From contig CM120643.1 of assembly GCA_051362555.1 (NCBI GenBank), forward strand, positions 29,454,848 through 29,518,847: DNA of 64,000 nucleotides, given 5' to 3'. Under the pieces are notes generated by a model. It ran no database searches. It saw only the letters and a list, made by a program, of their open reading frames with translations, and was not told the DNA's origin. Positions within the stretch are counted from its first letter, which is position 1. Each line of letters starts with the position of its first letter. The position numbers and the translations under genes are program-made. This document shows positions 15,100 to 63,923 of this stretch, one piece after another. The DNA is from Lingula anatina (taxonomy: Eukaryota; Animalia; Brachiopoda).

Positions 15100-15253
15100 T
15101 TTATATATAAATATAATGCATGTAGTAGGACAGGTTATTGCACACAAACATAGCACTTGTCTCAGTCTCACTTTGACCTTCTCACCTTGGCATGACCTTG
15201 GGATCACTTGGGATGGTCCAATCATTATTATTTGTTGCCAAATCCATTCCATT
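15100..15253 (-). pseudogene. Orphan fragment of ACAD-reductase gene: 3' part of exon 7 plus start of intron 7
   Basis: Minus strand encodes NGMDLATNNNDWTIPSDPKVMPR followed by donor GTGAGA; matches 31280-31440 and 62210-62360. Confidence 0.85.
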
Positions 15254-24971: not shown

Positions 24972-27900
24972 ATGGACATGTTTGCAGAAAAACCCTGGGG
25001 TAAGCGCCCTTACTGGGGGATTGGGTTCAACTACGACCATCAGTGGGTGCTGACAGATAAACAGAGGGAACTGCAGGCCAAGCTGATGGAGCTGTGCCGA
25101 ACGACGATGCGACCAAATGCCGTAAGTGACTTTTACATTACAACGCGGTTTTAAATTGTGTCTGTAATTTATTTGTTTAAATGGGTTTAATCTAAACCAT
25201 TAGTGATGTAAAAGAATAAGATGATACTGTATTATTTTATTTTACAAAGTGCCCAGACTACATTAATTAGCGCGAGTGTTTTTAATATGGCACGAGTGAG
25301 TCGATCATAATATGACGTTACGTCATGCTCCAATGTCAAAGGGGCAGACGAAGTTGTGTGCTATTTAAATTCCATGAAGTATCAATTTTCTATTTATTTT
25401 GATGACAAATGCCCATAGTTGCTGACTCCTAGATTTCCCAATCCAAGTCATGCTCCAATGTCAAAGGGGCAGACGAAGTTGTGTGTTATTTAAATTCCAT
25501 CCATGCGCATTAATTTTCTTTTTTATTTTGATGACATATACCCATAGTTGCTGACTCCTAGATTTCCTAAGTTCACATTAACAATGCGATATTGACGATG
25601 AATTGGTTATGTACTAATGCCTTTATTATTATTCCTCTTTTCTTTTATACTATTTATTCTGTCAGGTTTTTCTAATGGTCGAGTGCATTTAACGCTTTCG
25701 CTGTCTCTGGTAGGGACCAAGCCGATAAGGCAGTCATCCTTTATCATATGAAATCTTGTTAACAGTACGATGGCTACATCACTTAGCCCTGAAGATACAT
25801 TATTTGTACTTGCTAAGCGCTTCTGACACACATAACTACACATAGTATGCCAACTTACTATCCTCTTCGAACCTTGATCTCATTTTTACGAAGTACATGT
25901 ATGAGTATTCAAAAATCTAGTAACGTTGTTAATTTATTGATTAATTGATATATTTTATCTATTTATTTTTTTTTATCTCTGATTATCCGTGTCATTAATT
26001 TACTTTATTGTCAGTATTGGCAGTGTTTTTAATGGTTTAGATATCGTATAATATAACGCGCATTGAGATATTGATGGAATGAACCATGATTAAGGAGTAG
26101 TTTTTTTAAAAAATAATTTAAAATCATAACCTTAATGGTAACAGGAAGCAAATGTTTAAGTATGTTGGTGAGTGGAGGGGGGGTGGGGGTGGGGGCAAAA
26201 ATAATTTAGCCACAGATGAGGAAGGCCCTTCTTAGCCATTGCTTCCTGATATACATGTACGTTTGACAATGCTGAACAAAACGGTGGGAAACTAGGCCCC
26301 TTAATTAACCCCCGGTTCCCACACCATGAGTTAAACATTGTGGCCCTTGTCTCAAATTTATACCACAATACCAATTCTCCTTCCTCTTCCCTGAATTTAC
26401 ACCTTATAATCGACCAGGTAAGATATGACGAGACATATGAATTCCCAAGAGAAAACATGGACGCCATGGCGGAGCTGGGGCTGCTGGGATTGATTGTACC
26501 GAAGGACCTCGGTGGGCTGGGCGAGAACCACGTGTGTGCCGCCATGGTGGTGGAGACTATTGCCCGTTATGGGTGTCCCAGTACTGCTATGGTTTACTGT
26601 AAGTTAGGCCAAGTATAGGCCGGTGTGAACGGAATCCTGGTCCGCCTTAGGAATAGTAGTCCTAAATATATATAGGACTTCTATTCCTGGTGGACCTGCA
26701 TTCCGTTTACATAAGTCGGTGAAATGGAGGTCCGCCCTATTTTTATGTCCGTCCCTTTATATTACAACTAGGTAAAGGCCAGTGACATGAATAGTATGCT
26801 GAAGTGAGCATATATAATTAGTCCGTAAAATCGCAGACTTACCTGTTCGTCTCTCTGGCGTAGTGGTTAGGCAGTGCAACAATGTGCATCCAGAACAGTT
26901 TCTTAAAATAGACAAATGGGAGTACGAATCCCTATAAGGCTGAAGTTGCGTTTTTAAATTCTGCGTGATTTTGATATCTTTGCCATGTTTGTGGGCCATT
27001 TTACTTTGCCACGTCGGATAATTTTGATTGGTTACAGAAGCACCCAATTTGAAATTTTATCTGACAAATGAACAGGTCTACTAAAATGAAAATAAATTTA
27101 TCAAAACTTCATTTTTTTTTATTTTTCATTATTAATTTTTTGAATATCAAAATAATAAAGGTAACGACATAGGTCATTTTAATTCACACATATTATTATT
27201 TATCATATGTGACTTCCGATTAAGTGTGAGAGAAAAAGTCTAATCGGACATATAGTCCTAGTATAAATCAAGAAAACAGGTCCCATCCGGACTGGCACTC
27301 CTTGCCATGCGACTTGCATTCCTTAGTAAATGTTGTCCCACGGACGTTAAATCCTAGTAACGTATGTCCTAGGACATCCATTTCTAGAAACGCTAGACCT
27401 AGGACTACCATTCCGTTCACACTGCAACGTTCTGTTTGGAGAAATAAATTGGAATATCGCCCAGTGTCATTTATTTTTCATCTTGACAATATGAAATGCA
27501 AAAAGTAAAAAGAAGAAAAGATATTCTTCAGAATAAATATCCATTACCAACTTTTATATTGTTCACCAATTTTGTTAACTTAATATAGGGGTGAAAAAGA
27601 CTTTTAAAACAATCTTATATTAAAATTATTAACTCGTAGGACCCTCAAAACAACATTTTAGCTGTCTCTTTCATTTAACATTGGATTCCGGTATGTCATT
27701 TTAGGTATGCACGTTGGAGCAGTGGCTACTCTCCTATTCCGTTACGATAACAGCGAACTCATCAAAAATGTCCTCCAACGTTTGGACAAAGACAAGCTGG
27801 TGGGGACTGAGTCTTTTAGTGATCCCGCTACGGGTAAAAAGGCACATTATCTTTCTATCCGTGTATATAGTTATTTTATTATTATTTATTTATTTTTTGC

Positions 27901-28145
27901 GGACTACACTCGTGAGAAAATAGGTTTTATTTAAGTTAACATAAGTCGAAAGAGTCATAGCTGTTTGATTTCCATTCATTTTTCGTTTATCACATTATAT
28001 TATCTTTTCCACCTTTTTATACAACACGCATACTTTGCCATACGGCTTATGTGGTATTTCAAATACCCAGATCAGCAAAACCTTAATAATATTGATTAAA
28101 ACGTTTTCGGTTGAAGATATATCCGTTCTTAATGACATTATACGT

Positions 28146-28207
<62 letters not shown>

Positions 28208-31200
28208 ATCTCTTAGGTGGACATTTTTGGTACCCACTGTCCTCAAAGAACCGGTATACCAAGGATGGCAGGTTCCAAATGTTAAAGTACGCCTCCTGGA
28301 CAACCAGCGCCGGATTTGCTGACTTCTACGTCGTCCAAACCACTAGCCCGGGCTTTGGCAGCGACTATTCCGACCTTTCCATATTTCTGCTTTTCAAGGT
28401 GGATGTAGTTAAAATTCCAATTTTAAAAGTGATATTTGGCTGGAATCTGAAAAGGTGTAATTAGAGTTACCGCAAGCCAATATTAATAGGTGGTTAAAGA
28501 TTATGCCTATTAATTTTGTCTTTAATTTTTTTTTTGTTTATTTTGTTTATTTGAAAATGCATAGTTCACACGTGCACTAAAATGTTTTCCATGTACGACG
28601 GCTAATAAACCCATACGATATAGACGTTATTATGTAAAAATACATAAAGTTTACAGTCTCAATTGAATAATTTAGCCAATGTGCTAACTCATCAAACCAT
28701 AGCGTTTATCCATTACAAAAAATGTTACCTTTAAACTATAGGACGAAGTTCGTGCACATGCTGACGACTGGAAATCCCTAGGTCTCCGTGGTAACCAATC
28801 TGGCGTACTTATAACAGAGGGCGTGCTTAGTCAAGACAGGCAGGTTGGAGAAATCGGTAATTCAGTCATTCATCCTTGTGCGAAATGGCATAATAAAAAT
28901 GCGGTTATTCTCAATCGGATGCATAAGTAACAAATATGGGCGAAATATAATGTCTTGTTTATGAATCTAAATTCTGTTATTCTATTAATGTCTTTCTGAT
29001 CATTTAATTCACACATGAGCGTAGTATCTCTAAGCTATGAAGTTCATCAGTTTAGTTGTGAAGACTCAAGCATACAGACGCGTAATATGGCTAGTGGTAG
29101 TGTAAAACAAGTTGGAGGAAAATCAAAGGGGAAGTTGTTGTTGCACAAAATCGACAAACACATTTTTCAGAGCAACCGCGACCGCCATTTACTTTCTTAC
29201 TTATTACTGCTCATGCATCAAGGTATCAGAATCTCCTCCGAGCGCAGCCGAGAATTAATTACAGCTTTGGAAGTAACTTGCCCTCGCTGCCAGTAATTAC
29301 GCCGCCGGGTATCCAGGGCATAGACCGTGATCACAAGGTTCCGAAAATAGATTTTTAGATTTTTAGAAAATAGATTTTCCATGTGAACGGAGCCTTATTC
29401 CTGTAACACCTATGACAATAATGGAAAGTCTTATCCTTATGCATTAATACGGTTAAATGATACAATTAAAATTGTAAATGAAAATTCTTCTGGTGAACCA
29501 TATATAAGACAAAAATGGAGGGCGTGCAACTACAGCTCGTCTGTGTAGTGATTTGCGTGCAAGACCATAAGGTAAATATTTATGAAGAGGCCTGTTAAAT
29601 ACTTGGGTTTGATACCTACCTTTAACACGACCTTACCCCCCCCTCACCTCCCACCTTCACCTCGGATAACTTATTGTACCTAACTCTATATTGGTGTTTT
29701 TAATGTATAATGTTCTATATTATGTGATTATTACACTAACAACATTGTTTTTCGTTTTGTTTTTTAAGCCTCAAAATGCCAAAATATCAAAGGAATATAA
29801 CAGAACATTATATATAATTTCAAATTCCAAACTGTCTTGATTTGTTTTAAATCATCTATCCAAGAGCAACTTTCCATTGAGTTTGGGGTCATTTTGCAAT
29901 TCCTGCGAGTGTAAACCGAAAAATTAATCTAAGAACGGAGATCCTGTGTTTTGTGTAAAGTGATTTTTCCCTCATTTAAAGGCCTAAGAAGGTCAATGAC
30001 AGATGTAAAAATTTGCGTTTACTACAAGAAAAATACACGTAATAAAATAAATGAAGAAAAACTATGGGAACCATGTTTTTTTTATTACTTCATTAATACG
30101 CATATAAACACCGTAAAATATTAAAATAAAATTAAATAAAGCAAACGTTTATTATGTCTTTGAATCTAGCATATCTTTATATCTATTTATTCATGTCATT
30201 TCTCGGTGTAAACTAAATAGGACATGCGTCACAAAATTGTTAGGAACGCACGTCCCATTAGAACGTGCATTATAACACGCAGGACTTGCATTACATGGGG
30301 GCCTTCGTCCTAAGGACATTGAATCCTAGTAACGTATGTCCTAGGACTTCCATTCCGAGCAGTGCATGCCCTAGGACGTGCACTCCTGCCACACTGGTGC
30401 ACCCTTTACGCAACTTCATTTCAACATTTTTGGTGGGATATTTTCAACATGTTCTGGTGAAAGTTCTGGGTGGAATACAATTTTAAAAAGTCATCTCTGT
30501 CATGTATTTCATAGGTGAGGGTGCAGCTATAAACGATGAAGTTGGCAATCCGTGGTTCTTGCTACTGACTGCCTCCTGTTGGAACGGTATAGCCTTTGGT
30601 TGTATCGATGTTGCTTGCAAACATGCCACAGAAAAGGATCACGCTGACAACGGACTCCGAGTTTGCGACTATCCCACAATCCAGGTACGATGACGTCATC
30701 TGCACGTTTTCTGAATTCACGTGCGTTTACTTGAATTCTAACTTGAGTGGTCCTCTGTAGTTCTGCGCATGGGGCGGCTTAGCTTTTAAGCTTTAATTTA
30801 AAAATGTCGTCCTCTTGCAATTTTGATGTTGATTTTCCATATCTATAGACAACGCAAAATATCATCTCCCGTGTTGGTCAGTAAAGATGAAGTCTTCGAC
30901 GCTGTCTTTGTCCTGTTGGGCTACAATTTAACTCAATTGGAATAAGCACGCAAAAGCTACATAAGTACAATACAATATTGATTAATTATTAGCCTAACAA
31001 CGTGTACGAAAAAATGTACTGTACAAATCCGTTGATAAAGATACGTCGATTGAATGATGTCATTTGAAAGTTTAGAGGCTGCTTTGTACTCTATAACTCA
31101 TCTTCGGGATATTTTATTGTGCTACAAAAGAAGTATATTTCTGGGGCACTGCCAGTACTTCCTGACCTGCGAAGTGTATTTCTCAACAACAATTATGATT

Positions 31201-33231
31201 TACTCTATTCTAGGACTACTTCGGAGAGTGCATCATAGACACTAATGCCTGCCGAGCCTTTGTTTTCAATGTGGCCCATGGAATGGATTTGGCAACAAAT
31301 AATAATGATTGGACCATCCACAGTGATCCCAAGGTCATGGCAAGGTGAGAAAGTCAATGTGAGGCTGAGAGAAGTACTATGTTTGTGTGCAGTAAACTGT
31401 CCTACTGAGTACTACATGCATTCCATTTATATATAATAAGAAAATCATTTGAAAAACGTTTCAACATCTCAGTGTTGAAAACATTTATACTTATTTCATT
31501 CATTTCAGTCGCTTAAAAACAATTCTGGAAATATTCTAGAAAGAGCTGAAATTGTTAAGGACTATTTTTATTCCCAACTAAACGATATAATACTAAAACA
31601 TGGTGCCTATAATCGCTTCAGAACAGACTTCCTGCACTGGGGCTGGCAGATAAAGTTTGCAGCGGCCAAAAATGTCGGACATGTTTCCGATGTAATGCTT
31701 CACGCCTGCGGTGGTTCTGGATACAAAACAGAATTGGGTGAGTTTCAGTTCGAAATAAATAAGATGCACGAGCATTGCCTGAGCATAATATCTCCTTTCA
31801 AAAGATGAACATCTTTCGAATCCATCTACGCGGTCGACAAGAATGAAGTCTTTTCAGGTTGTGTAGGACATGGAATGGTATTCTTGTTTTATTCAAGAGA
31901 CTGTCTGAATTATACGTAATGCTATCAAACTAACAATCATTGAACTATCTACCTATGGGGAGCAAAATTTAATAACATGGCTATTCTTGCTCTTCTTTGA
32001 CTTATTGCAGGCATTGAGCGTCTTCTCCGAGACGCTAAGGCCGGCTGGGTGATGGGTGTGAGCAATGAGATCATACGGCAGTGGGTAGGAATCACGGCTC
32101 TCATGGGCACGGAGCAGCTGGATTTATGGTAGGTTGAGTTGATTTGCCAAACAATAACACCTTAGATGGTTAAATATAGAACCCGCGACCAAAACTTGGC
32201 TCCAACATAAAAATCATCCTCCATTTTTGACCGCCTTTCGACAGAAATATTAGATATTGTTACGCCTTCGCGGCCGAGTGCCTTATGAAGGTACAAATAA
32301 CAATGTACTTACTGGTGTCTCAGAGTATAAGCACAGAGAGAGTCAAGAACACAAAGCCAAATAGCCAAAGAGATCAGCCCCAAGAGAAGAGCAAAAGAGA
32401 GCGATTTATTTCACGTTACACCTTATATACTAGTTCAGATAGTACACGTTTACCAATCAGAACCAACTATACAGTGAACAGTTTTACCTTTAGGTTACCA
32501 ATCACGGGAGAGATTCAAACTTGCACACCGGACAACACTTTACTTACAGAGACATCTACCGGTAGCAATATAAAACAATCTCATCTAACACACTACATCG
32601 TCACAATATACCCGTCAATGAAAACTTGAAAATCTGACCGTCTTCTGGAAGACCCAAAAAACGGCCTAAATCCGCCCCCTGAATATGTTCTCAATAAATG
32701 AGTCGGACGTGATAAGATATCGAATTAACCTACCCGTATCTGGCAGAATTTTTGTCAGTTTCTCGCGTGTCAGTTTTAGTTCCTACTTCTGCTTTGTCTA
32801 CCTCGAGGGCCTGCCAAGGAAAGTAACATACTTTGCTTCTGCAATTCCCGTTTTATTTCCTTTTTCATTATCCCGTAGAGTTATTCCTCTATCTTTCAAC
32901 CCACGTGTGCTCGGACTATACCCTCCATCTTGGTTTGCAGTGACAGCCGGGTCTTCTTCTAAACAGTAGTATTCATCCATATGCAAATTGAGGCAAGTCC
33001 CAGAATCCCACGTATTGGAGAGTAATGGCGAGAAGTTTTGACGAAAAAAAATGCTGCGCTTTTTTTCTCTCAGTGATCTTAAAAACATGTCCTTTGATCT
33101 TTATTTTCTCAACGGTTTCGTTTGAGGTATGCCTTGGGGTTCAGGATAAAACAGGCAAAGTTTCAGAGAGACGCCTATTTAAGCGTCTACATACTTAGTT
33201 AATGCCAGATTGAGAAAAATGAAAATTTCAC

Positions 33232-33262
<31 letters not shown>

Positions 33263-35013: not shown

Positions 35014-35044
<31 letters not shown>

Positions 35045-36962
35045 AGACGCAGGTGATGGCTATATGTACAGACACATCTGCCAACTTTTTGTCAAATAAG
35101 AGCTACTGCTTTTAATTCATATTCTTTATGCACACAAATCAAACGCCCCATGAAAATACATACTTACATAGTTAAATTCAATTTGTAGGTCACAGAGAAC
35201 AAACAAGCGCCTTCTTAACTACGAGTTAAAGAAGCTGAAACCGGAGGTAAAGAAGGAGCTTGCGCACAAAATGCTGAGGGAGTGTGAGCAAGAGCTCGGC
35301 CAAGACAGCGGCACTGCGCCAAACCAAGATACTGACTTCGACGACCCTTTCTCCACATCTGCCGCCCTGCCTCTTGGCCCTTTCAAAGACCCCGCCGGTA
35401 AAGTCCACCTTGCTGCTTTAAACGCCGATACGTTTACCACCCTTAAGCTAACAGAGGTAATCCAAGAAGCAGACAATGTCCAGAGACTAAAATTCGCCCT
35501 GCCTGACCCAGAAGCCCACTCAGGTTGTCTGCCCGGTCAGTATGTGCAAGCACGTGTCAATGTTGGCGGGAAATTCCACGAGCGTTATCTGTCGCCCATG
35601 AGTGCTCCCACTGCGTTTGGTGTGATGGAGTTTGGGCTGCGCCTTGAGACGCATGGTGCGTTCTCCCTCGCTGTTAAGAATATGAAAATCGGTAGGTGCA
35701 CTTATCTTTTCTTATAGGACATAAAAGTGATATTAATATTATTGCTCATCATACTTAATAGGTAACATATTGGATGGCGCTGTCTTAATTATAATTAAGG
35801 TGATCTCTTTAAACTGATATGTGTATGGTTAGACATGAATACCCACGGTTTACTTTTCTTAAGTCTCGGTCACAAACGGCCGTATGGGCTCTTACGGGCT
35901 GGACGCGTCCAAATTTTGCGCAGAAACTCATGTCCCGCGCAGGGTCTTTTTACGCAATTTCGAGTTCGCAGACAGCGAAAGCTGTAAGCACGTACCGAGG
36001 ATGTTGGACATGTTCAAAAGATTCTACGTACAGCCTACGAACAGGGAGGCCGTAAGCGTAACTTGCTCCCCTCGCACGGAGTTAACAAGAAATACGCGCG
36101 TTGTGCAAGACGCACGTCGCAAGCAATGAAGAAGCAAGTGCCCTCTTACTGCGACCTCTACGGCCTCCGCAACACCCAAAAATCGCAGGGGACGAACAAT
36201 CCTGAAATTCGTGCGTCCGGTTGTGACCAAGGCTTTAAGCATGTGGAACGTTGTGCTTCATTTAAGTCATACGCCTGAATATTAATATTGTAGAATATAC
36301 GAAAAACGTTACGATGATATTCAAACTGATTTTTTTATTTTTTTTCAATAGACATAATGTGAAGCTACATTTTTGACAACGTTTGTTATATTTTATGCCA
36401 TGGAAAAAGCTACCAAAATACAATATACACTTACCTTATTTCAGGAGACACTCTAGAATGCCGAGGTCCATGTGGAGGTTTTGAATATTCCGCGGGAAAA
36501 CTGGATACTTTGACCATGATAGCCACCGGAGTCGGAGCCACGCCTGCCATACAACTTATCCGCAGCATCGCCAACGACCTCTCCGACACAACCAAGGTCA
36601 AGTTCTTCTACCACGCCAAGACGCCGAAGCAGCTATTATGCCTTGAGGAGCTTAGAGCATTTGGGAAACACGACAGTCGTTTCGATTTCACCTTCTGCGT
36701 TAGTGAGTGCGACGATACCTGGACTGGGACCGAGGGACTCATCGACGCCACCACTTTGAAACCGTTCCTGCCACCCGCCAACGGCAAGACCAACAAGACC
36801 ATCATCTGCACTGGTCCAGTAGTCGTAATCACTACCCTGTCTGCCCTTCATGAGCTTGGATACAAGAGCGACGACATCTACATCTATGGTCCGTTTGGAG
36901 TCGAGCTGATACGTGCCGTGTATGGCCAAAAAGCCAAACTTGCAACACATTTGCCCTGCTAG
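24972..36962 (+). CDS. Copy A: ACAD-fold flavoprotein fused to cytochrome-b5-reductase-like (FNR family) domain, 11 exons, 770 aa
   Basis: Exons 24972-25121, 26418-26598, 27705-27833, 28217-28398, 28742-28856, 30515-30684, 31214-31344, 31622-31737, 32011-32128, 35189-35691, 36445-36962; all GT-AG, phases compatible, 2313 nt open. ACAD motifs: ELGLLGLIVPKDLGGLG, SFSDPATG, SWTTS, LGLRGNQS, HACGGSGY, IERLLRDAK. Reductase motifs: FALP, PGQYV, RYLS, GAFS, GPCG, MIATGVGATP, CTGP. Kozak GCACCATGG. Confidence 0.9.
25323..25570. repeat. ~125-bp tandem duplication in intron 1 of copy A
   Basis: TCATGCTCCAATGTCAAAGGGG at 25323 and 25448; single in copy D. Confidence 0.85.
26624..27421. mobile_element. 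Non-autonomous Ginger1-like element in intron 2 of copy A
   Basis: TIR TGTGAACGGAAT ... ATTCCGTTCACA; left flank CCGG, right flank degenerate CTGC; empty site GCCGGAAACG in copy C (58711) and copy B. A related right end lies at ~30300-30393. Confidence 0.7.
28149..28204. repeat. (TA)n microsatellite just upstream of the exon 4 acceptor of copy A
   Basis: Direct reading. Confidence 0.95.
29270..29398. mobile_element. Right half of a Harbinger-type MITE related to 52913-53169
   Basis: GCCAGTAATTACGCCGC...GTGATCAC...CATGTGAACGGAGCC followed by TTA. Confidence 0.6.
32258..32605 (-). mobile_element. Solo LTR (348 bp) in intron 9 of copy A
   Basis: TGTTACG...CGTCACA termini with a perfect ATAT 4-bp duplication; AATAAA on minus strand (~32405-32410). 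Confidence 0.7.
33516..34097 (-). mobile_element. Solo LTR (582 bp) nested in the dispersed repeat in intron 9 of copy A
   Basis: TGTAAC...GTTACA termini, flanks CATT/CATG; absent in the homologous repeat at ~4110; minus-strand TATAAAA (~33757-33763) upstream of AATAAA (~33633-33638). Confidence 0.75.
35862..36234. mobile_element. PIF/Harbinger-type MITE in intron 10 of copy A
   Basis: TIR AGTCTCGGTCACAA / TTGTGACCAAGGCT, TTA duplication; empty site in copy B (~47595-47610). A related fragment lies at ~42010-42240. Confidence 0.8.
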
Positions 36963-38869: not shown

Positions 38870-39009
38870 GTGGCACAAATCTGGCGATCTCGATGACCAA
38901 GATGGCTGCCCGATCCATTGGTTTTGGATTTTATATGTTAATCTATTTAAAATGTTCTTTGTAAACCGGCATATTTATCGTGCAATGTAAAATTGTATGT
39001 TAATTGCCC

Positions 39010-40321: not shown

Positions 40322-41600
40322 AGATTATATATATATTACTAAAACTACTCCTTATGGTGCATTCCATTAAAATCTCATTGCGCCTTAAAAATATCTAAAA
40401 ATATTAAAAACACTGACAATACTGACAATAAGTGAGTAAACGACACGGATAATCAGATAAAAATATATGCATTAATAAATCAATACATAAAATATATTAA
40501 TAAATAAATTAATTAAAAATGTTACTAGATCTAGATTTTGGAATTCTCATACCTGCCCATGTGAAAATGAGACCAAGGTTCGAAGAAGATAGTAAGTAAG
40601 CATACTTTGTGCAGTTATGTATGTCAGTAGTGCTAAGCAAGAGTGTATCTCCAGGCATCGTACTGTTAACAAGATTTCATATGATAAAGGATGACACCCT
40701 TATCGGCTTGGTTCCAACCAGAGACAGAGAAAGCGTTAAATGCACTCGACCATGAGAAAAACCTGACAGAATAAATATTATAAAAGAAAACAGGAATAAT
40801 AATAAAGGTATTAGTACATACAGTAACAAATTCATCGCATCGATATCGCATTGTTAATGTGAACCTGGATTTGGAAAACTAGGAGTCAGCTACTATGGAT
40901 ATAATTATGACATCAAAAAGAAAATTGATACACATGGATGGAATTTAAATTCGTCTGCCCCTCCTGACATTAGAGCGTGACGTAATGTCATATGTATACT
41001 CAACTTACTCATGCTTTGTATGATGCTATTTTAAAAACTCGCGCCTTTGAATGTAGTCTGGGCGCTTTTTAAAGTAAAAAAGATTACAGTATCGTTTTGT
41101 TGTTTTACAACACTAGTGGTTTAGATTAAAGTCATTTACACAAATCAATTACAGACACAATTTAAAATCGTGTTGTAATGTAAAAGACACCGCATTGGTC
41201 GCATCGTCGTTCGACACAGCTCCATCAGCTTGGCCTGCAGTTCCCTCTGTTTATCTGTCAGCACCCACTGATGGTTGTAGTTGAACCCAATCCCCCAGTA
41301 AGGGCGCTTACCCCAGGGTTTCTCTGCGAACATATCCGTGGTGCTTCAGCGCGATCCGACGATCTTTACAAGTGACGCGTTATGACGAACAAAGTGCTTC
41401 TTTATAGAGTCTCTAGCTTGTCACCTGATCTACCGTCTAGGGGTCCAGGGTCAAGGTTTTGGATCGTGAAACAGATGCTGTGGTGTGATTAGTTTTCCGT
41501 ATGACAGGGTCCCGCTGGGGGGGGGGGGGGGGTCGTTTTCACAGTTGACGGAAAATTAGGGTAAAGGTTGTGTATCGTGCTATTGGTATCATTTGATTAA
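40322..41600 (-). pseudogene. Copy G: B-like promoter, exon 1 with destroyed splice donor, and part of intron 1, truncated at the Gypsy fragment
   Basis: Exon 1 41333-~41190 (MFAEKPWG...), first ATG mutated to ACG as in copy B; GTAAGT donor deleted; 40322-41180 is a direct repeat of 52640-53720 lacking the 52913 MITE. Confidence 0.9.
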
Positions 41601-42239
41601 CATCAGAGGTCGTGGAGGTAGAGGAAAGTCTGTCTTGCGAGTTGCAAGGGTCAGATTATATGTCCTTTCAAGCAGAACGCTTATTGCAAGGAGCGATGGA
41701 CGTGGAAATTGTACTCATTTCTTGAGTTTGTCTTGCTTCTTGTGTACGTGGCACACACTCACCACTTACGAAGGGAATACAACGCACGGCGAAAGTAGTG
41801 CTCTTTTGCGTCAGTTTTGCTTCACACTTGCCTCACACGTTTGTGGTGACGTACTGACGGCGTACGCCAGTTTTGCTTCCCGTTTTCCTTTTTTTCTTAT
41901 TCCTCCTCCCTTTTTTCTACTATGTAAGCTTCTTTCTATTGCCTTTTGGAGGCATATCAGAAACTAAATTGAGAAAAAATTTGAAAATTTTGAAAATTGT
42001 TGTACACGTTACACAGTCGATGTTCATTGTAAAGACACAGGCGTTCGTCGTGAGCACGCCTTTCATACACCAGGCGTGGGGGTGTCGCACGTGCGAAGCA
42101 TTCCCGGTGTGCTCTCGACTTTGTTCGTTAGTTGTGAGGGCGTGCGCCTTACTCAATGGTACTTGTTCATTCATTGCTTGAGACGTGCATCTTGCACAAC
42201 TCGCGTCTCTCTTGCTAACTCCGTGCGAGGGTAGCAAGT

Positions 42240-42452
42240 TACTAAAATTCGCACTGCCTGACCCAGAAGCCCACTCAGGTTGTCTGCCCGGTCAGTATGT
42301 GGAAGCACGTGTCAATGTTGGCGGGAAATTCCACGAGCGTTATCTGTCGCCCATGAGTGCTCCCACTGCGTTTGGTGTGATGGAATTCGGGCTGCGCCTG
42401 GAGACGCATGGCGCGTTCTCCCTCGCTGTTAAGAATATGAAAATCGGTAGGT
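42240..42452 (+). pseudogene. Orphan 3' part of exon 10 (reductase FAD-binding subdomain)
   Basis: LKFALPDPEAHSGCLPGQYVEARVNVGGKFHERYLSPMSAPTAFGVMEFGLRLETHGAFSLAVKNMKIG plus donor GTAGGT; near-identical to exon 10; preceded directly by a Harbinger-MITE fragment. Confidence 0.9.
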
Positions 42453-46870: not shown

Positions 46871-49800
46871 CTAGCAGGGTAAATGCGTCGCAAGTTTGGC
46901 TTTTTGGCCATACACGGCACGTATCAGCTCGACTCCAAACGGCCCATAGATGTAGATGTCGTCGCTCTTGTATCCAAGCTCATGAAGGGCGGACAGGGTA
47001 GTGATTACGACTGCTGGACCAGTGCAGATGATGGTCTTGTTGGTGTTGCCGTTGGCGGGTGGCAGGAACGGTTTCAAGGTGCTGGCGTCGATAAGTCCCT
47101 CGGTCCCAGTCCAGGAATCGTCGCACTCGCTAACGCAGAAGGTGAAATCAAAACGACTGTCGCGTTTCCCAAATGCTGTAAGCTCCTCAAAGCACAGCAG
47201 CTGCTCCGGCGTCTTGGCGTGGTAGAAGAACTTGATCTTGGTTGTGTCAGAGGGGTCGTTGGCGATGCTGCGGATAAGTTGTATGGCAGGCGTGGCTCCG
47301 ACTCCGGTGGCTATCATGGTCAAAGTATCCAGTTTTCCCGCGGAATATTCAAAACCTCCACATGGACCTCGGCATTCTAGAGTGTCTCCTGAAATAAGGT
47401 AAGTGTACATTGCATTTTTGGTAGTTGTTTCCATGGCATAAAGAATATACACACATTTTCAAAATATAGCGCCCAACAATTTGTGTCTGTCAATGAAAAA
47501 AAAAAAACAGTTTGAATATCATCGTATTTTTTTTAGTATATCTACATTATTAATATTCAGACTTATGGTTTAAATGAAGCGCAGCGATCCACATGCATAA
47601 AAAAGTAAACGGGGAGTGTTGACTTTTAACCATACACATATCAGTTTAATGAGGCTACCTCTATTATAATGAAGAGAGCGTCATCCAAAATGTTAACTAT
47701 TAAGTTTGATGAGCAATAATATTAATATTACTTTTATGTCCTGTAAGAAAATATAGGTGCACCTACCGATTTTCATATTCTTAACAGCAATGGAGAACGC
47801 GCCATGCGTCTCTAACCGCAACCCGAACTCAATCACACCAAACGCACTGGGAGCACTCAAGGGCGACAGATAACGCTCGTGGAATTTCCCGCCAACATTG
47901 ACACGTGCTTGGACATACTGACCGGGCAGACAACCCGAGTGGTCTTCTGGGTCAGGCAGGGCGAATTTTAGTCTCTGGACTTTGTCTGCTTCTTGGATAA
48001 CCTCTGTTAGCTTAAGGGTGGTAAACGTATCGGCGTTTAAAGCAGCGAGGTGGACTTTACCCGCGGCGTCTTTGAAAGCGCCAAGAGGCAGCGCGGCAGA
48101 TGTGGAGAAAGGGTCGTTGAAGTCGGTGTCTTGGTTTGGCGCTGTGCCGCTGTCTTGGCCCAGCTCTTGCTCACACTCCCTCAGCATTTTGTGCGCAAGC
48201 TCCTTCTTTACTTCCGGTTTCAGCTTCTTTAACTCGTAGTTAAGAAGGCGCTTGTTTGATCTCTGTGACCTACAAATTAAATTTAACCATATATGTTTAT
48301 TTAAATAAAGCGTGTGACTTGTATGCATTAAAATATGAATTAAAAGCAGTAGCTTTTATCTGTCTTTTTTCAATTCAAACCTTGATTGGTGGCACAAACG
48401 AACTGAACACCAAAAATCTTGGTTAAATAAGATAAAGTTGCTAATGGTCTAAAATATTAGTCATTTCTTACTTTCTTTTATGATACTGGCGATACATTTT
48501 TTTAAATGGACCACATGAATCTTTCTACTTGAGACAAAACGAGTACATTGTGTACGCAAGATTTTGATTTTTATGTTGTAGCCAAGTTTTGGTTGCAGGT
48601 TCTTTATGTAACCAGCCCCTGGTGTTATGGATTGGCAAATCAACTCAACATACCAGTAATCCAGCTGCTCCATTCCCATGAGAGCCGTGATTCCTACCCA
48701 CTGCCGTGTGACCTCATTGCTCGGACCCATCACCCAGCCGGCTTTGCCGTCTCGGAGAAGACGCTCAATGCCTGCAATATGTCATTAATTATATATGTTA
48801 CTTAACATAGGCAGTTAGGTCAAGGATTGTTAGTTTGATCGCATTACGTATAATTCAGTTAGCCTCTTGAATCAAACGGGGATACTATTCCATGTCCTAC
48901 ACAACCTGAAAAGACTTCATTCTTGTCAGCCGCGTTTAAATGGTTTCAAGTGATGTCCATCTTTCGAAAGGAGAAACTTTGCTCAGGCAATGCTCGTGTA
49001 TCTTGTTTATTTCGAACTGCAACTCACCCAATTCTGTTTTGTATCCAGAACCACCGCAGGCGTGAAGCATTACATCGGAAACATGTCCGACATTTTTGGC
49101 CGCTTCAAACTTTATCTGCCAGCACCAGTGCAGGAAGTCTGATCTGAAGCGATTACAGGCACCATGTTTTAGTATTATATCGTTTAGTTGGGGATAAAAT
49201 AGTCCTTAACAATTTCAGCTCTTTCCAGAATATTTCCAGATTTGTTTTTAAGTGACTGAGATGAATGAAATAAATGTAAATGTTTTCAACATTGAGATGT
49301 GGAAACGTTGTTCAAATGATTTTCTTGTTATATGTATCTGGAATGCGTGTAGTAGGACGAGTTACTGCTCTGAAACGTAGCCCGTTCCTAAGTCTCACTT
49401 TGACCTTCTCACCTTGGCATGACCTTGAGATCATTGTGGATGGTCCAATCATTATTATTTGTTGCCAAATCCATTCCATGAGCCACATTGAAAACAAAGG
49501 CTCGGGAAGCATTGGTTTCTATGATGCACTCTCCGAAGTAGTCCTAGAATAGAATATATATATAACATAATTGTTGTTGAGAAATACACTTAGCAGGTCA
49601 GGAAGTACTGGTAGTGCACCAACAAGTTACTTCTTTTGTAGCACAATAAAATATCCCGAAGATGAGTTATAAAGTACAAAGCAGCCTCTAAACTTTCAAA
49701 TGACATCATTCAATCGACGTATTTTTATCAACGGATTCGTACAGTACACTTTTTTCGTACAATTATTTATACTTCGCCTGAAATACAATCTCGCTCACGT

Positions 49801-52800
49801 TTCCTGTAACTCGTTAGGCGAATAATTGATCAACACTTATGTACTTATGTACTTATGTAGCTTTTGCGTACTTATTCCATTTGAGTTAAATTTTAGCCCA
49901 ACAGGACAAAGACAGCGTCGAAGACTGAAGACTTCATCTTTACTGACCAACACGGGAGATGATATTTTTCGTTGTCTATAAATATGTAAAACCAACATCA
50001 AAATCACAAGAGGGCGATACCTAAGCTGCCCCATTCGCAGCACTACGGATGATCACTCAAGTTAGAACTCAAGTTTACGCACGTGAATTCAGAGAGACGT
50101 GTAAATTACGTCATCGTACCTGGATTGTGGGATAGTCGCAAACTCGGAGTCCGTTGTCAGCGTGGTCCTTCTCCGTGGCATGTTTGCAAGCAACATCGAT
50201 ACAACCAAAGGCTATACCGTTCCAACAGGAGGCAGTCAGCAGCAAGAACCACGGGTCGCCAATTTCATCAGTTATGGCTGCACCTTCACCTGTACAATTA
50301 ATGAAAGCGATGACTCTAAAATTGTATTCCACCCAGAACTTACACCAGAAAATGTCGAAAATGTCCCACTAGAAATCTTTAAACGAAGCCGCGTAATGGG
50401 TGCACCAACATAAAATAGAAATAAAAAACAAAACAAAAAACAAAACAAAAAACAAATGTTATCTTAATCAATACACCCCTATCTAAAACCGTTCAAAAAT
50501 TGATGATTAATATATCAAGTTATTAATTTCTTATCTTTACCATTAGGCGAGAAACTCAAAATTTTGTCAACAATTTTGGTTAATGTCTGAATTACCGAGT
50601 TCTCCAACCTGCCTGTCTTGACTAAGTATGCCCTCTGTTATAAGTACGCCAGATTGGTTACCACGGAGACCAAGGGATTTCCAGTCGTCAGCGTGGGCAC
50701 GAACCTCGTCCTATAGTTTAAAGGTAACATTTCATGTAATGGATAAATGCTGTGGTTTGAACAGTTAGCACAGTGAATTATTCAACAGAGACTACTTTTT
50801 AGGTAAATTTTACATGATAAAATGTTTATATCGTATCAGTTTATTAGAGGTTTATTAGCTGCCGTAAAACATTGTTTTAGTGCACGTGTAAATTATGCAT
50901 GTTCAAAAAAAAAAAAAAAAAAAAAACGAAAATGTTTTGAAGGCAAATATGCATAATCGTTTTTTAACCACCTATCAATATTGGTTTGCGATAAATCAAA
51001 TGATATCTTTTCAAAATCCGGACAAATATTAAAGTCGAGATTGGAATTTGAACTATACCAACCTGGAACAGTAGAAATATGGAGAGGTCGGAGTAGTCGC
51101 CGCCAAAGCCCGGGCTAGTGGTTTGGACGACGTAGAAGTCTGCAAAACCGGCGCTGGTTGTCCAGGAGGCGTACTTTAATATCTGGAACCTGCCATCCTT
51201 GGTATACCGGTTCTTAGAGGACAGTGGGTACCAAAAATGTCCACCTAGAAAACATCATAATTATACATGTATGATACGCGTAATGCCAATTATTAACGAC
51301 CAAATCTTCAATCGAAATAGTTTTAATCGATATCATTCAAGTACTACTGATGTTCTAGGCATGTGTATTTAAAATACCACATCAGCTGTATGACAAAGCA
51401 TGCGTGTTGTATAAAAAGATGGGAAAGATAATGTTATGTGATAAACGGAAAATAAATGGGAATCAAACAGCTACGACTCTTTCGATTTATGTAAACTTAA
51501 ATAAAACCGATTTTCTCACGAGTGTAGTCCCCAAAACATTTAAATAAATAATAATTAAATAAATATATACACGGATAGAAAGATAATGTGCCTTTTTACC
51601 CGTAGCGGGATCACTAAAAGACTCAGTCCCCACCAGCTTGTCTTTGTTCAAACGTTGGAGGACACTTTTGATGAGTTTGTTGTTATGGTAACGCAGTAGG
51701 AGAGTAGCCACTGCTCCAACGTGCATACCTAAATTGACATATCGGAAGCCAATGTAAAATGAAAGAGACAGCTAAAATGTTGTTTTGAGGGTTCCAACGA
51801 GCTAATAATTTTGATTGTTTTTAAAGTAATGTTAACGCTTTATTAGTTAACAAAATTGGTGAACAATATTACAGTTAATAATGGCCATTTATTCTGAAGA
51901 ACATCTTTTCTTCTTTCTAATCTTTGCATATTATATTGCCCCAGATGAAAAAGAAATGACACTGGACCATATTCCAATTTATTTTATCAACTAGAATGCT
52001 TTTCCGGCCTAAAGATGGCGCTATACTTACAGTAAACCATAGCAGTACTGGGGCACCCATAACGGGCAATAGTCTCCACCACCATGGCGGCACACACGTG
52101 GTTCTCGCCCAGCCCGCCGAGGTCCTTCGGTACAATCAATCCCAGCAGCCCCAGCTCCGCCATGGCGTTCAAGTTTTCTCTTGGGAATTCATATGTCTCG
52201 TCATATCTTACCTGGTTGATTATAAGGTGTAAATTCAGGGATGAAACTGGTGAATGTAAATCTCTTTACAACTTCTTGAATCTATGTGCATGTTGTTCAT
52301 TTGCGAATATCCATGGGCAACTGTTGGTATTATGATTTAATCTGAGCGATAATTCGCAGACATGAACCACAAAGGACCATAACGCTTAACTCACAGGTGT
52401 GGGAACGGGAGGATAATTAAGAGGTCAGTGATGAGACCTGAAAATGATATACATGGCAATTAATCGGGGGTTAATTATGGGGCCAACCCCCCCCCCCCCC
52501 CCCCCCAACCTTTTGTTCAGCATTGCCAAACATATATCGGGAGCAAGGGGGCAAGAAGGGTCTTCCTCTTCTGTGGCTAATTTATTTCTGCCCCTCCCCT
52601 CCCTCCAACATACTTACATTTGCTTCCTGTTACCATTATGATTATATATATTACTAAAACTACTCCTTATGGTGCATTTCATTAACATCTCATTGCGCCT
52701 TAAAAATATCTAAAATTATTAAAAACACTGACAATACTGACAATAAGTGAGTAAACGACACGGGTAATCAGATAAAAATAAATGCATTAATAAATCAATA

Positions 52801-53870
52801 CATAAAATGTATTAATAAATTGATTTTAATTAAAAACGTTACTAGATCTAGATTTTTGAATTCTCATACCTGCCCATGTGAAAATGAGACCAAGGTTCGA
52901 AGAGGATAGTAAGGCTTCGTTCACATGCAATGTCTATTTTCTAAATTCTATTTTCTATTCGCGCTATCTTATGATCACGGTTTGTACCCTGAATATCCCG
53001 CCGCGTAATTACTGGCAGCGCGAGCCAGTTACTTATAGTAACTTATAGTAACTGGCTCGCGCCGCCAGTAATTACGCCGCGGGATATTCAGGGCACAGAG
53101 CGTGATCATAAGACATACCACGAATAGAAAATAGAATTTAGAAAATAGACATTGCATGTGAACGAAGCCTAAGTAAGCAGTTATGTGTGTCAGTAGCGCT
53201 TAACTTAGCTAAGATTTCTTATGATAAAGGATGACACCCTTATCGGCTTGCTTTTTACCAGAGACAGCGAAAGCGTTAAATGCACCCGACCATTAGAAAA
53301 ACCTGACAGAATGAATAGTATAAAAGAAAAGAGGAATAATAATAATAAGGGCATTAGTACATACAGTAACTAATTCATCGCATTGTTAATGTGAACCTGG
53401 ATTTGGAGATCTAGGAGTCAGCTACTATGGATATAATTATGGCATCAAAAAGAAAATTGATACACATGGATGGAATTTAAATTCGTCTGCCCCCCCTGAC
53501 ATTAGAGCGTGACGTTATGTCAAATGTATACTCAACTTACTCATGCTTTGTATGATGCTATTTTAAAAACTCGCGGCTTTGAATGTAGTCTGGGCGCTTT
53601 TTAAAGTAAAAAAAATTACAGTGTTGTTTTGTTGTTTTACAACACTAGTGGTTTAGATTAAAGTCATTTACACAAATCAATTACAGACACAATTTAAAAT
53701 CGTGTTGTAATGTAAAAGATACTTACGGCATTTGGTCGCATCGTCGTTCGACACAGCTCCATCAGCTTGGCCTGTAGTTCCCTCTGTTTATCTGTCAGCA
53801 CCCACTGATGGTCGTAGTTGAACCCAACCCCCCAGTAAGGGCGCTTACCCCAGGGTTTCTCTGCGAACAT
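46871..53870 (-). CDS. Copy B: ACAD-fold flavoprotein/cytochrome-b5-reductase-like fusion, 11 exons, 768 aa from the second ATG
   Basis: Exons (-) 53870-53727, 52211-52031, 51728-51600, 51244-51063, 50710-50596, 50289-50120, 49543-49413, 49143-49028, 48771-48654, 48269-47767, 47388-46871; exons 2-11 have the same lengths as in copy A, all GT-AG, no stops seen; first ATG is ACG (53876-53874). Confidence 0.9.
52913..53169. mobile_element. Almost fully palindromic Harbinger-type MITE (257 bp) in intron 1 of copy B
   Basis: TIR GGCTTCGTTCACATGCAATGTCTATTTTCTAAATTCTATTTTCTATTCG, TAA duplication, empty site in copy G (GATAGTAAGTAAGCA, ~40590). Confidence 0.9.
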
Positions 53871-54179
53871 ATCCGTGGTGCTTCAGCGCGATCCGACGAT
53901 CTTTACAAGTGACGCGTTGTGACGAACTAAGTGCTTCTTTATAGTGTCGCTACTTTGTCACCTGATCTACCGTCTAGGGATCCAGGGTAAAGGTTGTGGG
54001 TCGTGCTCTTGGTATCATTTTATTAACATCAAATTTCACAAGAGAAACGGTTCTGACTGAACAATTCAACTGTATCGATATTCTGACATTGCTTATATTC
54101 CGCCTCTTCAGGTTACTCTGATTCAGGGGGTGACACTTCTATTGTCCAGTGTGTGAAGCTGCCTCCCCTCATTCAATAA

Positions 54180-57449: not shown

Positions 57450-57520
57450 TATAAAGAAGCACTTAGTTCGTCACAACTCGTCACTTATAAAGATCGTCGG
57501 ATCTTACTTAAGCACCATGG
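57450..57520 (+). promoter_or_regulatory. Predicted core promoter of copy C: TATA box, Inr-like element and strong Kozak
   Basis: TATAAAG at 57450, TCACTT ~30 nt downstream (57481), GCACCATGG at the start codon; the same layout is conserved in B, E, F and G, with a CATAAAA variant in A. Confidence 0.5.
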
Positions 57521-60500
57521 ATATGTTTGCAGAGAAACCCTGGGGTAAGCGACCTTACTGGGGGATTGGGTTCAACTACGACCATCAGTGGGTGCTGACA
57601 GATAAACAGAGGGAACTGCAGGCCAAGCTGATGGAGCTGTGCCGAACGACGATGCGACCAAATGCCGTAAGTGTCTTTTACATTTCAACACGAATTAAAA
57701 TTGTGTCTGTAATTCATTTGTTTAAATGGCTTTAATCTAAACCATTTGTGATGTAAAACAACAAAGTGATACTGTAATTTTTTTAAAAATTTATAAAGAG
57801 CCCATACTACATTCAATAGCGCGAGACTACATTCAAAAGAGTTTTTAATATAGCATCATACAAAGCACGAGTGAGTCGAGCATACAAATGACATTACATC
57901 ACGCTGTACATAATGTCAAAGTTGCAGGCGAAGTTGTGTGTTATTTAAATTCCATGCAGGTGTATCAATTGTCTTTTTATTTTGATGCCATATATCCATT
58001 GTAGCTGACTCTTAGATGTCCAAATTCAGGTTTACATATTGACGATGAATTAGTTATGTACTAACCCAGCAGACAAACGACATTGATTCACGTTGAATCA
58101 ACGTTAATTTTGGTGGATCACCGTTGAATCAACGTAGAATCAATGTCGTTTGCCTGCTGGGAATGCTCTTATTATTATTCATCTTTTCTTTTCTATTTTC
58201 ATTCTGTCCGGTTTTTCTAATGATAGAGTGAATTTTAACGCGAATTTTCGCTGTCTGTGGAAGGAACCAATTCGATAAGGGTGTAATCCTTATCCTTATC
58301 TTGATCGTTTCAAAGCAATATCGTGTCTGTATGCACAGTGCATATGGAATCATATTAACAGTACAGATAACTACATCACTAAGCCCAGGAGATACACCCC
58401 TTACTTTTACTTGCTGAGCACTGCTATATATATATATATATATACAGGGGGTATATATATATATAATTCTCAAGTCTCATCACTGAATTAACACGTTGTA
58501 ATCGACCAGGTAAGATATGACGAGACATATGAATTCCCAAGAGAAAACTTGAACGCCATGGCGGAGCTGGGGCTGCTGGGATTGATTGTACCGAAGGACC
58601 TCGGCGGGCTGGGCGAGAACCACGTGTGTGCCGCCATGGTGGTGGAGACTATTGCCCGTTATGGATGTCCCAGTACTGCTATGGTTTACTGTAAGTTACG
58701 CCAACTATATGCCGGAAACGCATTCTAGTTGATATAATAAATTGGAATATCGCCAATTTCTTTTTTTGTCTGGGGCAATGAAATGCAAAAAAATAGAAAG
58801 AAGAAAAGATATATCCCGCACGAAAACGCAGTAGATACTCCAGCGCAGTAGACTACTGCAATCATACTGCAAACATGCCTGAAATCTGCTTCGATGTGGG
58901 AGCTAATTAGCATATTTGAAACATGCTTCTATCATGCTGCTAACCTACTGCATTAATGCTCCTCTCTGTACAAATTTATGTACTTTTTTGGAGTAGAATT
59001 GCAGTAGGCTATACTGCATTTCTACTGCAAATATGATCCACACCACTACTGCGTTAATGCTTCTTTGCTACTTCGATACTACTGCATTTTCGTGTGCGGA
59101 TATTCTTCAGAATTAGTATCCATTATCAACTTAAATATTGTTCTCCAGAATTTTTTTTACCTTTATAAAACATTGGAAAAATGACTTTAAAAACAACCTC
59201 TTGTCAAAATTATTAACTCGTTGGAACCCTAAAACAACATTTTAGCTGCCTCTTTCATTTTACATTGGATGCCTATATGCCATTTTAGGTATGCACGTTG
59301 AAGCAGTGGGAAGTCTCCTACTCCGTTACCATAACAACGAACTCATCAAAAGTGTCATCCGACGTCTGGACAAAGACAAGATGGTGGGGACTGTGTCTGC
59401 TAGTGATCCCGCTACAGGTAAAAACGCAGAGCGAGGTTTATCGATTTATTAATCTCTCTATTCAAGTATTTATTTAGTTAATTAATTAATGTATTTAGTT
59501 AGTTAATTATTTAATTAATTAATTAATTAATTAATTATTTTTGGGGACTACACACATGATAAAATAGGTTTTGTTTAATGTTTCATTCGTTAAAAGAGTC
59601 ATAGCTGTGCGACTTTCATTTTTTGGTTTTTTATATTATCTACCCCGCCTTTTATAACACCTATAATTTGCCATACAATTGATGTGGTACAGAGCATCAG
59701 TAATACCTGAATGATATAGACAAAAAAGCAACTGAAGATTTAGTCTTTCTTTATTGGCATTATATACGTGACATGTACTTATGATATCTCCTAGGTGGAC
59801 ATTTTTGGTACCCACTGTCCTCTAAGAACCGGTATACCAAGGATGGCAGGTTCCAGATGTTAAAGTACGCCTCCTGGACAACCAGCGCCGGATTTGCAGA
59901 CTTCTACGTCGTCCAAACCACTAGCCCGGGCTTTGGCGGCGACTACTCCGACCTCTCCATATTTCTACTGTTCCAGGTTGGTATAGTTCAAATTCCAATC
60001 TTGAAAGTAATATTTGTCCGGAATTTGAAAATATATCATTTGATTTATCACAAACCAATATTAATAGGTGGTGAAAGAACACGATTATGGCTATTTGTCT
60101 TCAAAATTTTTTTTGTTTGTTTTGGTTTTTGAAAATGCATAATTCACACGTGCACTAAAACAATGTTTTACGGCAGCTAATACGATCGATATACCATGTT
60201 ATCATGTAAAATATGCAAAAAAGCACAGTCTCTGTTGAATAATTTATTCATTGTGCTAACTCATCAAACCACAGCCTTTACCCATTACATAAAATGTTAC
60301 CTTTAAACTATAGGACGAGGTTCGTGCCCATGCAGACGACTGGAAATCCCTAGGTCTCCGTGGTAACCAGTCTGGCGCACTTATAACAGAGGGCTTGCTT
60401 AGTCAAGACAGGCAGGTTGGAGAACTCGGTACGTCAGACATTCATTTTTGTGAGAAATTGCATAATACATGCACCATTCTTCTCAATCGGATGTATTAAG

Positions 60501-63500: not shown

Positions 63501-63923
63501 AAATGCTGAAGGAGTGTGAGCAAGAGCTGGGCCAAGACAGCGGCACTGCGCCAAACCAAGACACCGACTTCGACGACCCTTTCTCCACATCTGCCGCCCT
63601 GCCTCTTGGCGCTTTCAAAGACGCCGCGGGTAAAGTCCACCTCGCTGCTTTAAACGCCGATACGTTTACCACCCTTAAGCTAACAGAGGTTATCCAAGAA
63701 GCAGACAAAGTCCAGAGACTAAAATTCGCTCTGCCTGACCCAGAAGCCCACTCAGGTTGTCTGCCCGGTCAGTATGTGCAAGCACGTGTCAATGTTGTCG
63801 GGAAATTCCACGAGCGTTATCTGTCGCCCATGAGTGCTCCCAGTGCGTTTGGTGTGATGGAGTTCGGGCTGCGCCTGGAGACGCATGGCGCGTTCTCCCT
63901 CGCTGTTAAGAATATGAAAATCG
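57517..63923 (+). CDS. Copy C: ACAD-fold/reductase fusion, exons 1-10 (exon 11 expected beyond the window)
   Basis: Exons 57517-57666, 58510-58690, 59289-59417, 59795-59976, 60314-60428, 60991-61160, 62144-62274, 62517-62632, 62912-63029, 63421-63923; lengths identical to copy A, GT-AG, open frame. Confidence 0.88.
58065..58161. mobile_element. 97-bp EnSpm-like MITE (CCCAG termini, AA 2-bp TSD) in intron 1 of copy C
   Basis: TIR CCCAGCAG(A/G)CAAACGACATTGATTC; empty site TATGTACTAATGC in copies A and D. Confidence 0.85.
58815..59099. mobile_element. EnSpm-like MITE, same family as 42839-43131, in intron 2 of copy C
   Basis: CCCGCACGAAAACGCAGTAG...CTACTGCATTTTCGTGTGCGG, AT flanks; empty site GAAAAGATATTCTTCAG in copy A. 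Confidence 0.85.
61528..61915 (-). mobile_element. 5'-truncated L2/CR1-group LINE 3' end in intron 6 of copy C
   Basis: ORF2 C-terminus RLKTYGDIFFKAEGPKEWNLLPLEIRAIQSTKHFKKELKTYLF, then 3'UTR, AATAAA and a (TAT)n tail; absent in copies A and B. Confidence 0.8.

Follow-up and report, generated by a model that had tools for sequence, protein, structure and literature searches.

A gene on the forward strand of a 64,000-nucleotide stretch of the brachiopod Lingula anatina (contig CM120643.1, positions 29,454,848 to 29,518,847; hereafter the window) encodes a single chain in which an acyl-CoA dehydrogenase (ACAD)-fold domain of bacterial type is followed by a b5-reductase-type domain. The feature is real: an old fusion with a bacterial-type half, and likely a one-chain amine oxygenase. 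As to the exact reaction, we see about even chances that the fusion is a self-sufficient flavin N-oxygenase converting trimethylamine to trimethylamine N-oxide (TMAO), with the fused reductase in place of a bacterial partner protein. Bacterial relatives of the first domain adjoin the TMAO demethylase gene tdm, which suggests that animals likely possess a self-contained TMAO-making enzyme.

Read in the window frame, eleven exons spanning 24972–36962 on the plus strand give 770 codons with zero stops, and all ten introns of the gene have GT–AG borders. A sequence-only reading of this DNA had described nine introns interrupting the ACAD part and a domain junction inside a single exon of 503 nt. 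Both descriptions hold: nine introns fall at codons 50–430 and the tenth at codon 598, within the reductase, and frame, splice borders and RNA reads agree that the junction lies inside the exon at 35189–35691 (phases 2 and 1, AG upstream, GT downstream) and not at an intron. The RNA evidence consisted of raw reads from four runs carrying the same species label as the window. Twenty reads with 15 starts cross the splice from 32128 to 35189 in one of the four runs, and the splice from 35691 to 36445 is found in three of four runs in one analysis and four of four in another. Introns 1, 6, 7 and 8 give clean joints, introns 2 and 5 give joints with differing letters, and no joints for introns 3 and 4 occur among the rows listed. 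Reads at 90–96% likeness may derive from an allele or a paralogue. G+C content at third codon positions is alike in both halves of the gene (0.56, 0.61, 0.57).

Pfam places the ACAD domains PF02771 and PF00441 up to about residue 418, upstream of intron 9, and, over cut-off, FAD_binding_6 (PF00970) at residues 516–613 and NAD_binding_1 (PF00175) at 623–724. The junction exon does contain the junction and half of the reductase, as had been described; it does not contain the end of the ACAD core, and carries instead a family-specific helical tail (about residues 432–467) found in stand-alone bacterial relatives too. Both folds appear in the AlphaFold model of P0166, a Lingula relative, with a low-confidence linker at 468–484 and a domain arrangement that is not fixed (pTM 0.57). 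No mitochondrial-type leader is evident on the fusion protein.

The reductase domain has altered FAD and CGP motifs and about 25 extra conserved residues at its C-terminal end. Compared through the Lingula paralogue P0170, it aligns without gaps to yeast Cbr1 and the Physarum b5 reductase over the GPCGG...MIA stretch and is missing the 16-residue insertion of rat and pig CYB5R3. The proposal that it is without the animal insertion is therefore correct against CYB5R3, the one animal form compared, although the stretch quoted in its support belongs to exon 11, beyond the junction exon. The absence of the insertion is common to fungal and amoebozoan enzymes, and retention of an old eukaryotic state would explain it more simply than gene transfer.

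Identity of the ACAD half is 43–61% to 49 stand-alone relatives, 28–32% to the next subfamilies and at most 24% to solved ACADs, bearing out its description as bacterial-type. Across the eukaryote-type and stand-alone groups, 96 positions are at least 90% identical in both, and the window protein retains 96 of 96. Among them are several family-specific Trp and acidic residues, which may serve to hold a small, positively charged amine. Pocket positions that bacteria conserve are altered in some decapod, barnacle and coral copies, a hint that certain paralogues act on other substrates.

We then examined the loci of the bacterial relatives, whose named carriers include Actinomycetota, cyanobacteria, Alphaproteobacteria and Gammaproteobacteria. 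Our survey covered 80 genome and 80 metagenome loci, many of them short, with tdm identified by NF053776 over cut-off. Among the genome loci, 75 of 80 have tdm near the family gene, including all 64 that reach 12 kb; the metagenome set has it in 34 of 80, and in 12 of the 16 long loci. A PF01613 flavin reductase gene is present in 61 of 80 and 16 of 80, respectively. Further recurring neighbours are APC permeases (one of them scoring above the cut-off for a TMAO permease), PhyH dioxygenase, copper amine oxidase and N-methylglutamate pathway-like genes. Of 301 evenly drawn Actinomycetota genomes, the same 10 (one of them the centre genome) carry both tdm and the ACAD-fold family, adjacent and on the same strand every time. 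The FMO-like domain PF00743 had no match in 14 of 14 carriers tested (the 10 and four more), and the trimethylamine monooxygenase Tmm (NF058570) matched in one of the 301 genomes, a non-carrier. The established aerobic route runs through Tmm, Tdm and Dmm, in that order, named here after NCBIfam and Pfam. Two loci, L129 and L138, hold the dimethylamine monooxygenase genes dmmABC within the family cluster; where dmm is present, the remaining step is that from trimethylamine to TMAO.

Cyanobacterial-type clusters (L081–L126) combine the ACAD family with a shortened Tdm (605–665 amino acids, below the NCBIfam cut-off), and also hold PhyH, copper amine oxidase, Amt, a glutamine-synthetase-like gene and MOSC, a gene content that suggests use of trimethylamine as a nitrogen source. 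One record, P0098, joins the bacterial ACAD to a DUF1989 part of Tdm and may be a frameshift or an assembly join of the neighbouring genes.

In the mechanism that we propose, trimethylamine would be converted to TMAO by the ACAD-fold domain, with reduced flavin predicted to come from the reductase domain at the expense of NAD(P)H. The bacterial relative would fill the Tmm step beside tdm, the animal protein would have kept trimethylamine as its substrate, and the fused reductase would substitute for the separate bacterial flavin reductase, an economical account of the fusion. A dedicated source of reduced flavin is seen on both sides, as the PF01613 gene in bacterial loci and as the fused reductase in the window protein, with the hand-over itself predicted. 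The FNR family includes free-flavin reductases. ACAD-fold two-component (group D) monooxygenases oxidise heteroatoms, converting dimethyl sulfide (DMS) to dimethyl sulfoxide according to the accessible text of PMC13352529. The increase of amphipod TMAO with depth (PMC10077225) and the occurrence of the fusion in the hadal amphipod Hirondellea gigas also speak for the proposal.

Several observations weigh against this proposal. Activity is known for no family member, function being read from sequence and context, and the accessible text of PMC9511220 attributes crustacean and amphipod TMAO to flavin-containing monooxygenases (FMOs). The carriers Procambarus, Cherax, Hyalella and Armadillidium live in fresh water or on land, a poor fit to an osmotic role alone, and the pocket of certain animal paralogues carries diverged positions. 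On the bacterial side, tdm is missing from 4 of the 16 long loci of the metagenome set; the 80 loci from genomes belong to related Actinomycetota, many of them contributed by a small number of studies, and are not independent; cyanobacterial-type loci mostly have no adjacent flavin reductase; and Tmm is scarce in the sampled phylum anyway, so its absence weighs little alone. With dmmC in just 2 of 160 loci, the dimethylamine step of most carriers is also open, and dmmC (PF11927) had no match in five carriers in a search run without a positive control. The fold, too, is nearest to true ACADs (4kto, Z 44.2, root-mean-square deviation 2.1 over 371 aligned residues), with monooxygenases scoring lower (5z8t, Z 37.3; TdsC, 36.9; DnmZ, 34.2), and the conserved Glu261, which lies five residues away from the second known site of an ACAD base, could serve as a base.

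The scarcity of dmmC speaks for an alternative that we consider unlikely while granting it appreciable weight, namely a self-sufficient flavin oxygenase whose main substrate is another small amine or a sulfide (dimethylamine, DMS or dietary amines), in the bacteria or after divergence in animals. Oxidation of DMS by both Tmm and group D enzymes, described in the accessible text of PMC13352529, fits such an enzyme, and the tandem expansion in the window together with several decapod paralogues suits a spread of substrates. Yet the gene is tied to tdm, whose substrate is TMAO; dmmABC adjoins it in L129 and L138; and the PhyH dioxygenases and amine oxidases of these loci offer other candidates for the later steps.

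The active site informs a further alternative, in which the fusion acts as a dehydrogenase of acyl-CoA type that carries its own electron acceptor, or as an N-oxide reductase driven by NADH. At position 407, which we take to be the catalytic-Glu site of SCAD and MCAD, all 35 eukaryote-type rows and all 49 stand-alone rows have Gly, Ala or Ser and none of the 84 has Glu; solved ACADs mostly have Glu where the window protein has Gly407. What is presumably the catalytic-Glu position of IVD and LCAD aligns to Trp266 in profile alignments. We judge this alternative improbable. In its favour, the closest solved folds and sequences are true ACADs, Glu261 is conserved, and 9 of the 80 metagenome loci encode MOSC proteins; but the usual Glu is absent, no electron-transfer flavoprotein or fatty-acid gene families are among the identified recurring neighbours, no NCBIfam ACAD model comes near its cut-off (best, 182 bits against 600 for the Rv1679/FadE16 model with Lingula P0166), and destruction of TMAO beside tdm would be futile.

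Comparison with characterized systems places the proposed N-oxygenase near, and outside, several known groups. It has the ACAD fold in common with group D monooxygenases (DszC/TdsC, HsaA, HpaH C2, DnmZ and Acinetobacter baylyi Dms1-3; Z 34–37), is like them without the catalytic Glu, and its bacterial relatives are accompanied by a gene for a flavin reductase. Unlike them, it is a single chain with a fused FNR/b5-reductase-type domain, occurs in animals, and is 15–21% identical. Since solved monooxygenases match the fold less well than true ACADs do, oxygenase activity here would be of separate origin; structure searches returned no close solved relative of the family. The reaction proposed is that of Tmm (NF058570) and vertebrate FMO3, and the bacterial relatives occupy the place beside tdm, but these enzymes have an unrelated fold, and PF00743 is absent from the Pfam matches of P0166. 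Tmm is a class B enzyme in the accessible text of PMC13352529. With SCAD, MCAD and IVD the fusion protein shares the fold and both Pfam domains, and it differs from them in its low identity, Gly407 for Glu, the fused reductase and the lack of an evident mitochondrial-type leader. The reductase resembles Cbr1-type b5 reductases (yeast 7rom and Physarum 2eix; TM 0.87–0.89 by target) in its short loop, and differs in its 27–28% identity, its motifs and its C-terminal extension. Its best-scoring outside relatives are protist multidomain flavoproteins: P0416 (Fabomonas tropica) and P0132 each combine what appears to be a fumarate-reductase-like front with a b5-reductase end, and P0132 also resembles the stretch directly before the FAD domain. 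In P0419 (Rigifila ramosa), a different ACAD-fold protein (23% identity) is joined to a Cbr1-type reductase; the same two folds seem to have been fused independently in this protist.

We next analysed the distribution of the fusion with a profile built from 19 fusions, scoring 7997 candidates. Among the best 120 of 1373 matches, 65 carry the reductase, 54 are stand-alone proteins of 462–498 residues and one is a partial barnacle model; none is a bacterial fusion. Crustacean carriers comprise decapods, with several paralogues per genome, a stomatopod, krill, amphipods including the hadal Hirondellea gigas, an isopod, barnacles and an ostracod. Named carriers outside crustaceans are six stony coral genera, the chiton Liolophura, Owenia and Lingula, and five fusions look non-animal (P0004, P0207, P0213, P0346 and P0362). 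The named matches include no insect, nematode, deuterostome, sponge, bivalve or gastropod, which is not proof of absence. In the ESM Atlas, the cluster of the fusion has 142 members, eukaryotes only and arthropods in the majority. Searches with the fusion alignment against viral contigs and with the stand-alone bacterial protein against plasmids (1e-60) gave no match.

Intron positions, compared through the ends of gene-call protein fragments in clusters, bear indirectly on the age of the fusion. Acropora-cluster fragments P0319 and P0320 break at residue 50, a Lingula intron; the Porites-cluster fragment P0329 has borders at 153 and 214, both Lingula introns; three of three Pocillopora-cluster fragments examined break at residue 599, matching the intron at codon 598; and P0282, from a coral-grouping cluster, spans exactly 432–599, the junction exon. 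In all, coral fragments share Lingula intron positions 50, 153, 214, 430 and 598. Crustacean-like fragments have borders 110 and 214 in common with Lingula and one more near 672. P0004 and P0362 run uninterrupted over residues 54–677 and 402–673, without the animal introns, and each could be a transcript or a gene; P0004 fits the suggestion that fusion came first and introns later.

In phylogenies of the two halves, the animal sequences come together. A quick mixture tree of the ACAD half (45 of 93 rows, no outgroup) separates stand-alone proteins from fusions with SH-aLRT support of 99 and unites animals (99), corals (100) and crustacean-type sequences (99), with the non-animal-looking fusions between the stand-alone proteins and the animals. 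A 32-row LG+G4 tree with five outgroup rows, excluding the long ostracod, P0336, P0337, Hyalella and P0204 rows, again unites animals (99/98), with all fusions at 84/58 and bacteria at 57/62, support too low to place the root or any donor. The reductase tree (18 of 21 rows) separates all fusions (100/99) from three protist-type outside domains and unites animals (86/95); having no stand-alone Cbr1 or CYB5R rows, it cannot place the origin of this half. A FastTree of all 93 ACAD rows, rooted inside animals on long branches, was dropped as probable long-branch attraction.

The fusion is thus neither recent nor brachiopod-specific. The simplest reading is a single fusion event older than the cnidarian–bilaterian split and probably pre-animal. 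Entry into brachiopods, or into several animal lineages separately, by recent bacterial transfer is very improbable and largely refuted: the identity of about 60% to bacterial proteins and the patchy named distribution would suit it, but animals form one group in both trees, corals have the Lingula introns, and bacterial fusions are absent from the listed matches. Recent or lineage-specific transfer finds no support, given the fusion and intron positions shared between cnidarians and bilaterians, and the expected nesting of the ACAD clade has no support within any named bacterial group. Sharing of fusion and introns roughly follows the animal tree, which goes half way to refuting horizontal transfer by the standard set with the sequence-only reading; the distribution is still patchy.

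A bacterial origin of the ACAD half is probable, ancient and unrooted. We favour, with modest confidence, its passage from bacteria into an early eukaryote, followed by inheritance and frequent loss. Somewhat unlikely is an old vertical eukaryotic heritage, or arrival in the animal stem lineage by way of a different eukaryote, followed by extensive loss. Non-animal-looking fusions branching between bacteria and animals in both halves, and the undecided split between bacteria and fusions when an outgroup is included, speak for that history; against it stand the presence of the family in several bacterial phyla within dedicated operons, a named next-nearest relative that is bacterial (Sporosarcina), and an identity of 60%, which would be surprisingly high if the two had parted at the origin of eukaryotes.

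Positions 15186–63923 of the window form a tandem and inverted array of two complete copies, one copy running off the window end and at least six exon fragments (Table 1), its flanks duplicated over large stretches at 84–94% identity. Two RefSeq proteins of Lingula anatina match the window protein at about 94% identity (723 of 768 and 720 of 769 residues), and several copies lie on one 255-kb RefSeq scaffold, so the array is not specific to this assembly. Intron 9 (32200–35100) contains interspersed repeats under heavy cover by RNA reads that originate at other genomic sites and, in stranded runs, are mostly antisense. Frames at 38950–40100 on the minus strand look like a broken retroelement pol region.

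Table 1. Exons of the fusion gene and related copies in the window
Feature	Positions	Strand	Evidence
Exon 1, codons 1–50	24972..25121	+	RNA joint 25121–26418
Exon 2, Acyl-CoA_dh_N	26418..26598	+	Frame and Pfam
Exon 3	27705..27833	+	Window frame
Exon 4, residues 154–214; coral fragments with identical borders	28217..28398	+	
Exon 5	28742..28856	+	Window frame
Exon 6	30515..30684	+	RNA reads and frame
Exon 7	31214..31344	+	RNA reads and frame
Exon 8	31622..31737	+	RNA reads and frame
Exon 9, contains Gly407 (presumed catalytic-Glu position of short/medium-chain ACADs)	32011..32128	+	
Exon 10 (junction exon): helical tail of bacterial-type domain, acidic linker, FAD-binding reductase half	35189..35691	+	
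Exon 11: NAD-binding reductase half, family-specific C-terminal extension, stop	36445..36962	+	
Complete 11-exon paralogue, 718/770 residues identical	46871..53876	-	Open frame
Third paralogue, exons 1–10, window ends in intron 10, 555/598 identical	57517..63923	+	Open frame
Gene fragments: partial exon 7 (-), entire exon 1 (+, 16605–16754), two partial exon 1 copies (-)	15186..19876		
Gene fragments: exon 1 copy (-, 41190–41339), 3' part of exon 10 (+, from ~42241)	41190..42446		

In marine animals TMAO serves as a major osmolyte and protects against pressure. The accessible text of PMC9511220 assumes that invertebrates make it through FMOs; that of PMC10077225 reports amphipod TMAO increasing with depth and treats diet versus synthesis, and the share of own synthesis, as open. 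Our literature search, which reached few subscription journals and no supplements, found no description of the family or of the animal fusion, and no TMAO data for corals or brachiopods, including in the accessible parts of PMC7240134 and PMC4158864. As an evolutionary case the fusion is less striking than first proposed, the acquisition being ancient and not recent. We suggest tentatively, at somewhat below even confidence, that corals, brachiopods, some worms and molluscs and most crustaceans may make TMAO by a single-chain, non-FMO enzyme that would have arisen before the cnidarian–bilaterian split by fusion of a bacterial ACAD-fold trimethylamine oxygenase with a eukaryotic b5 reductase, and that this enzyme may be an overlooked piezolyte source in deep-sea crustaceans. 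If so, shrimp, crabs, krill, hadal amphipods and reef corals would possess a second, unrelated TMAO enzyme, which would alter the present view of TMAO synthesis and matter for the marine cycling of methylamine and possibly of DMS. Because the single chain carries its own reductase, one construct suffices for a test that bears also on the many bacterial operons with the same domain, and the animal fusion would be the easiest handle on an uncharacterised bacterial substitute for Tmm.
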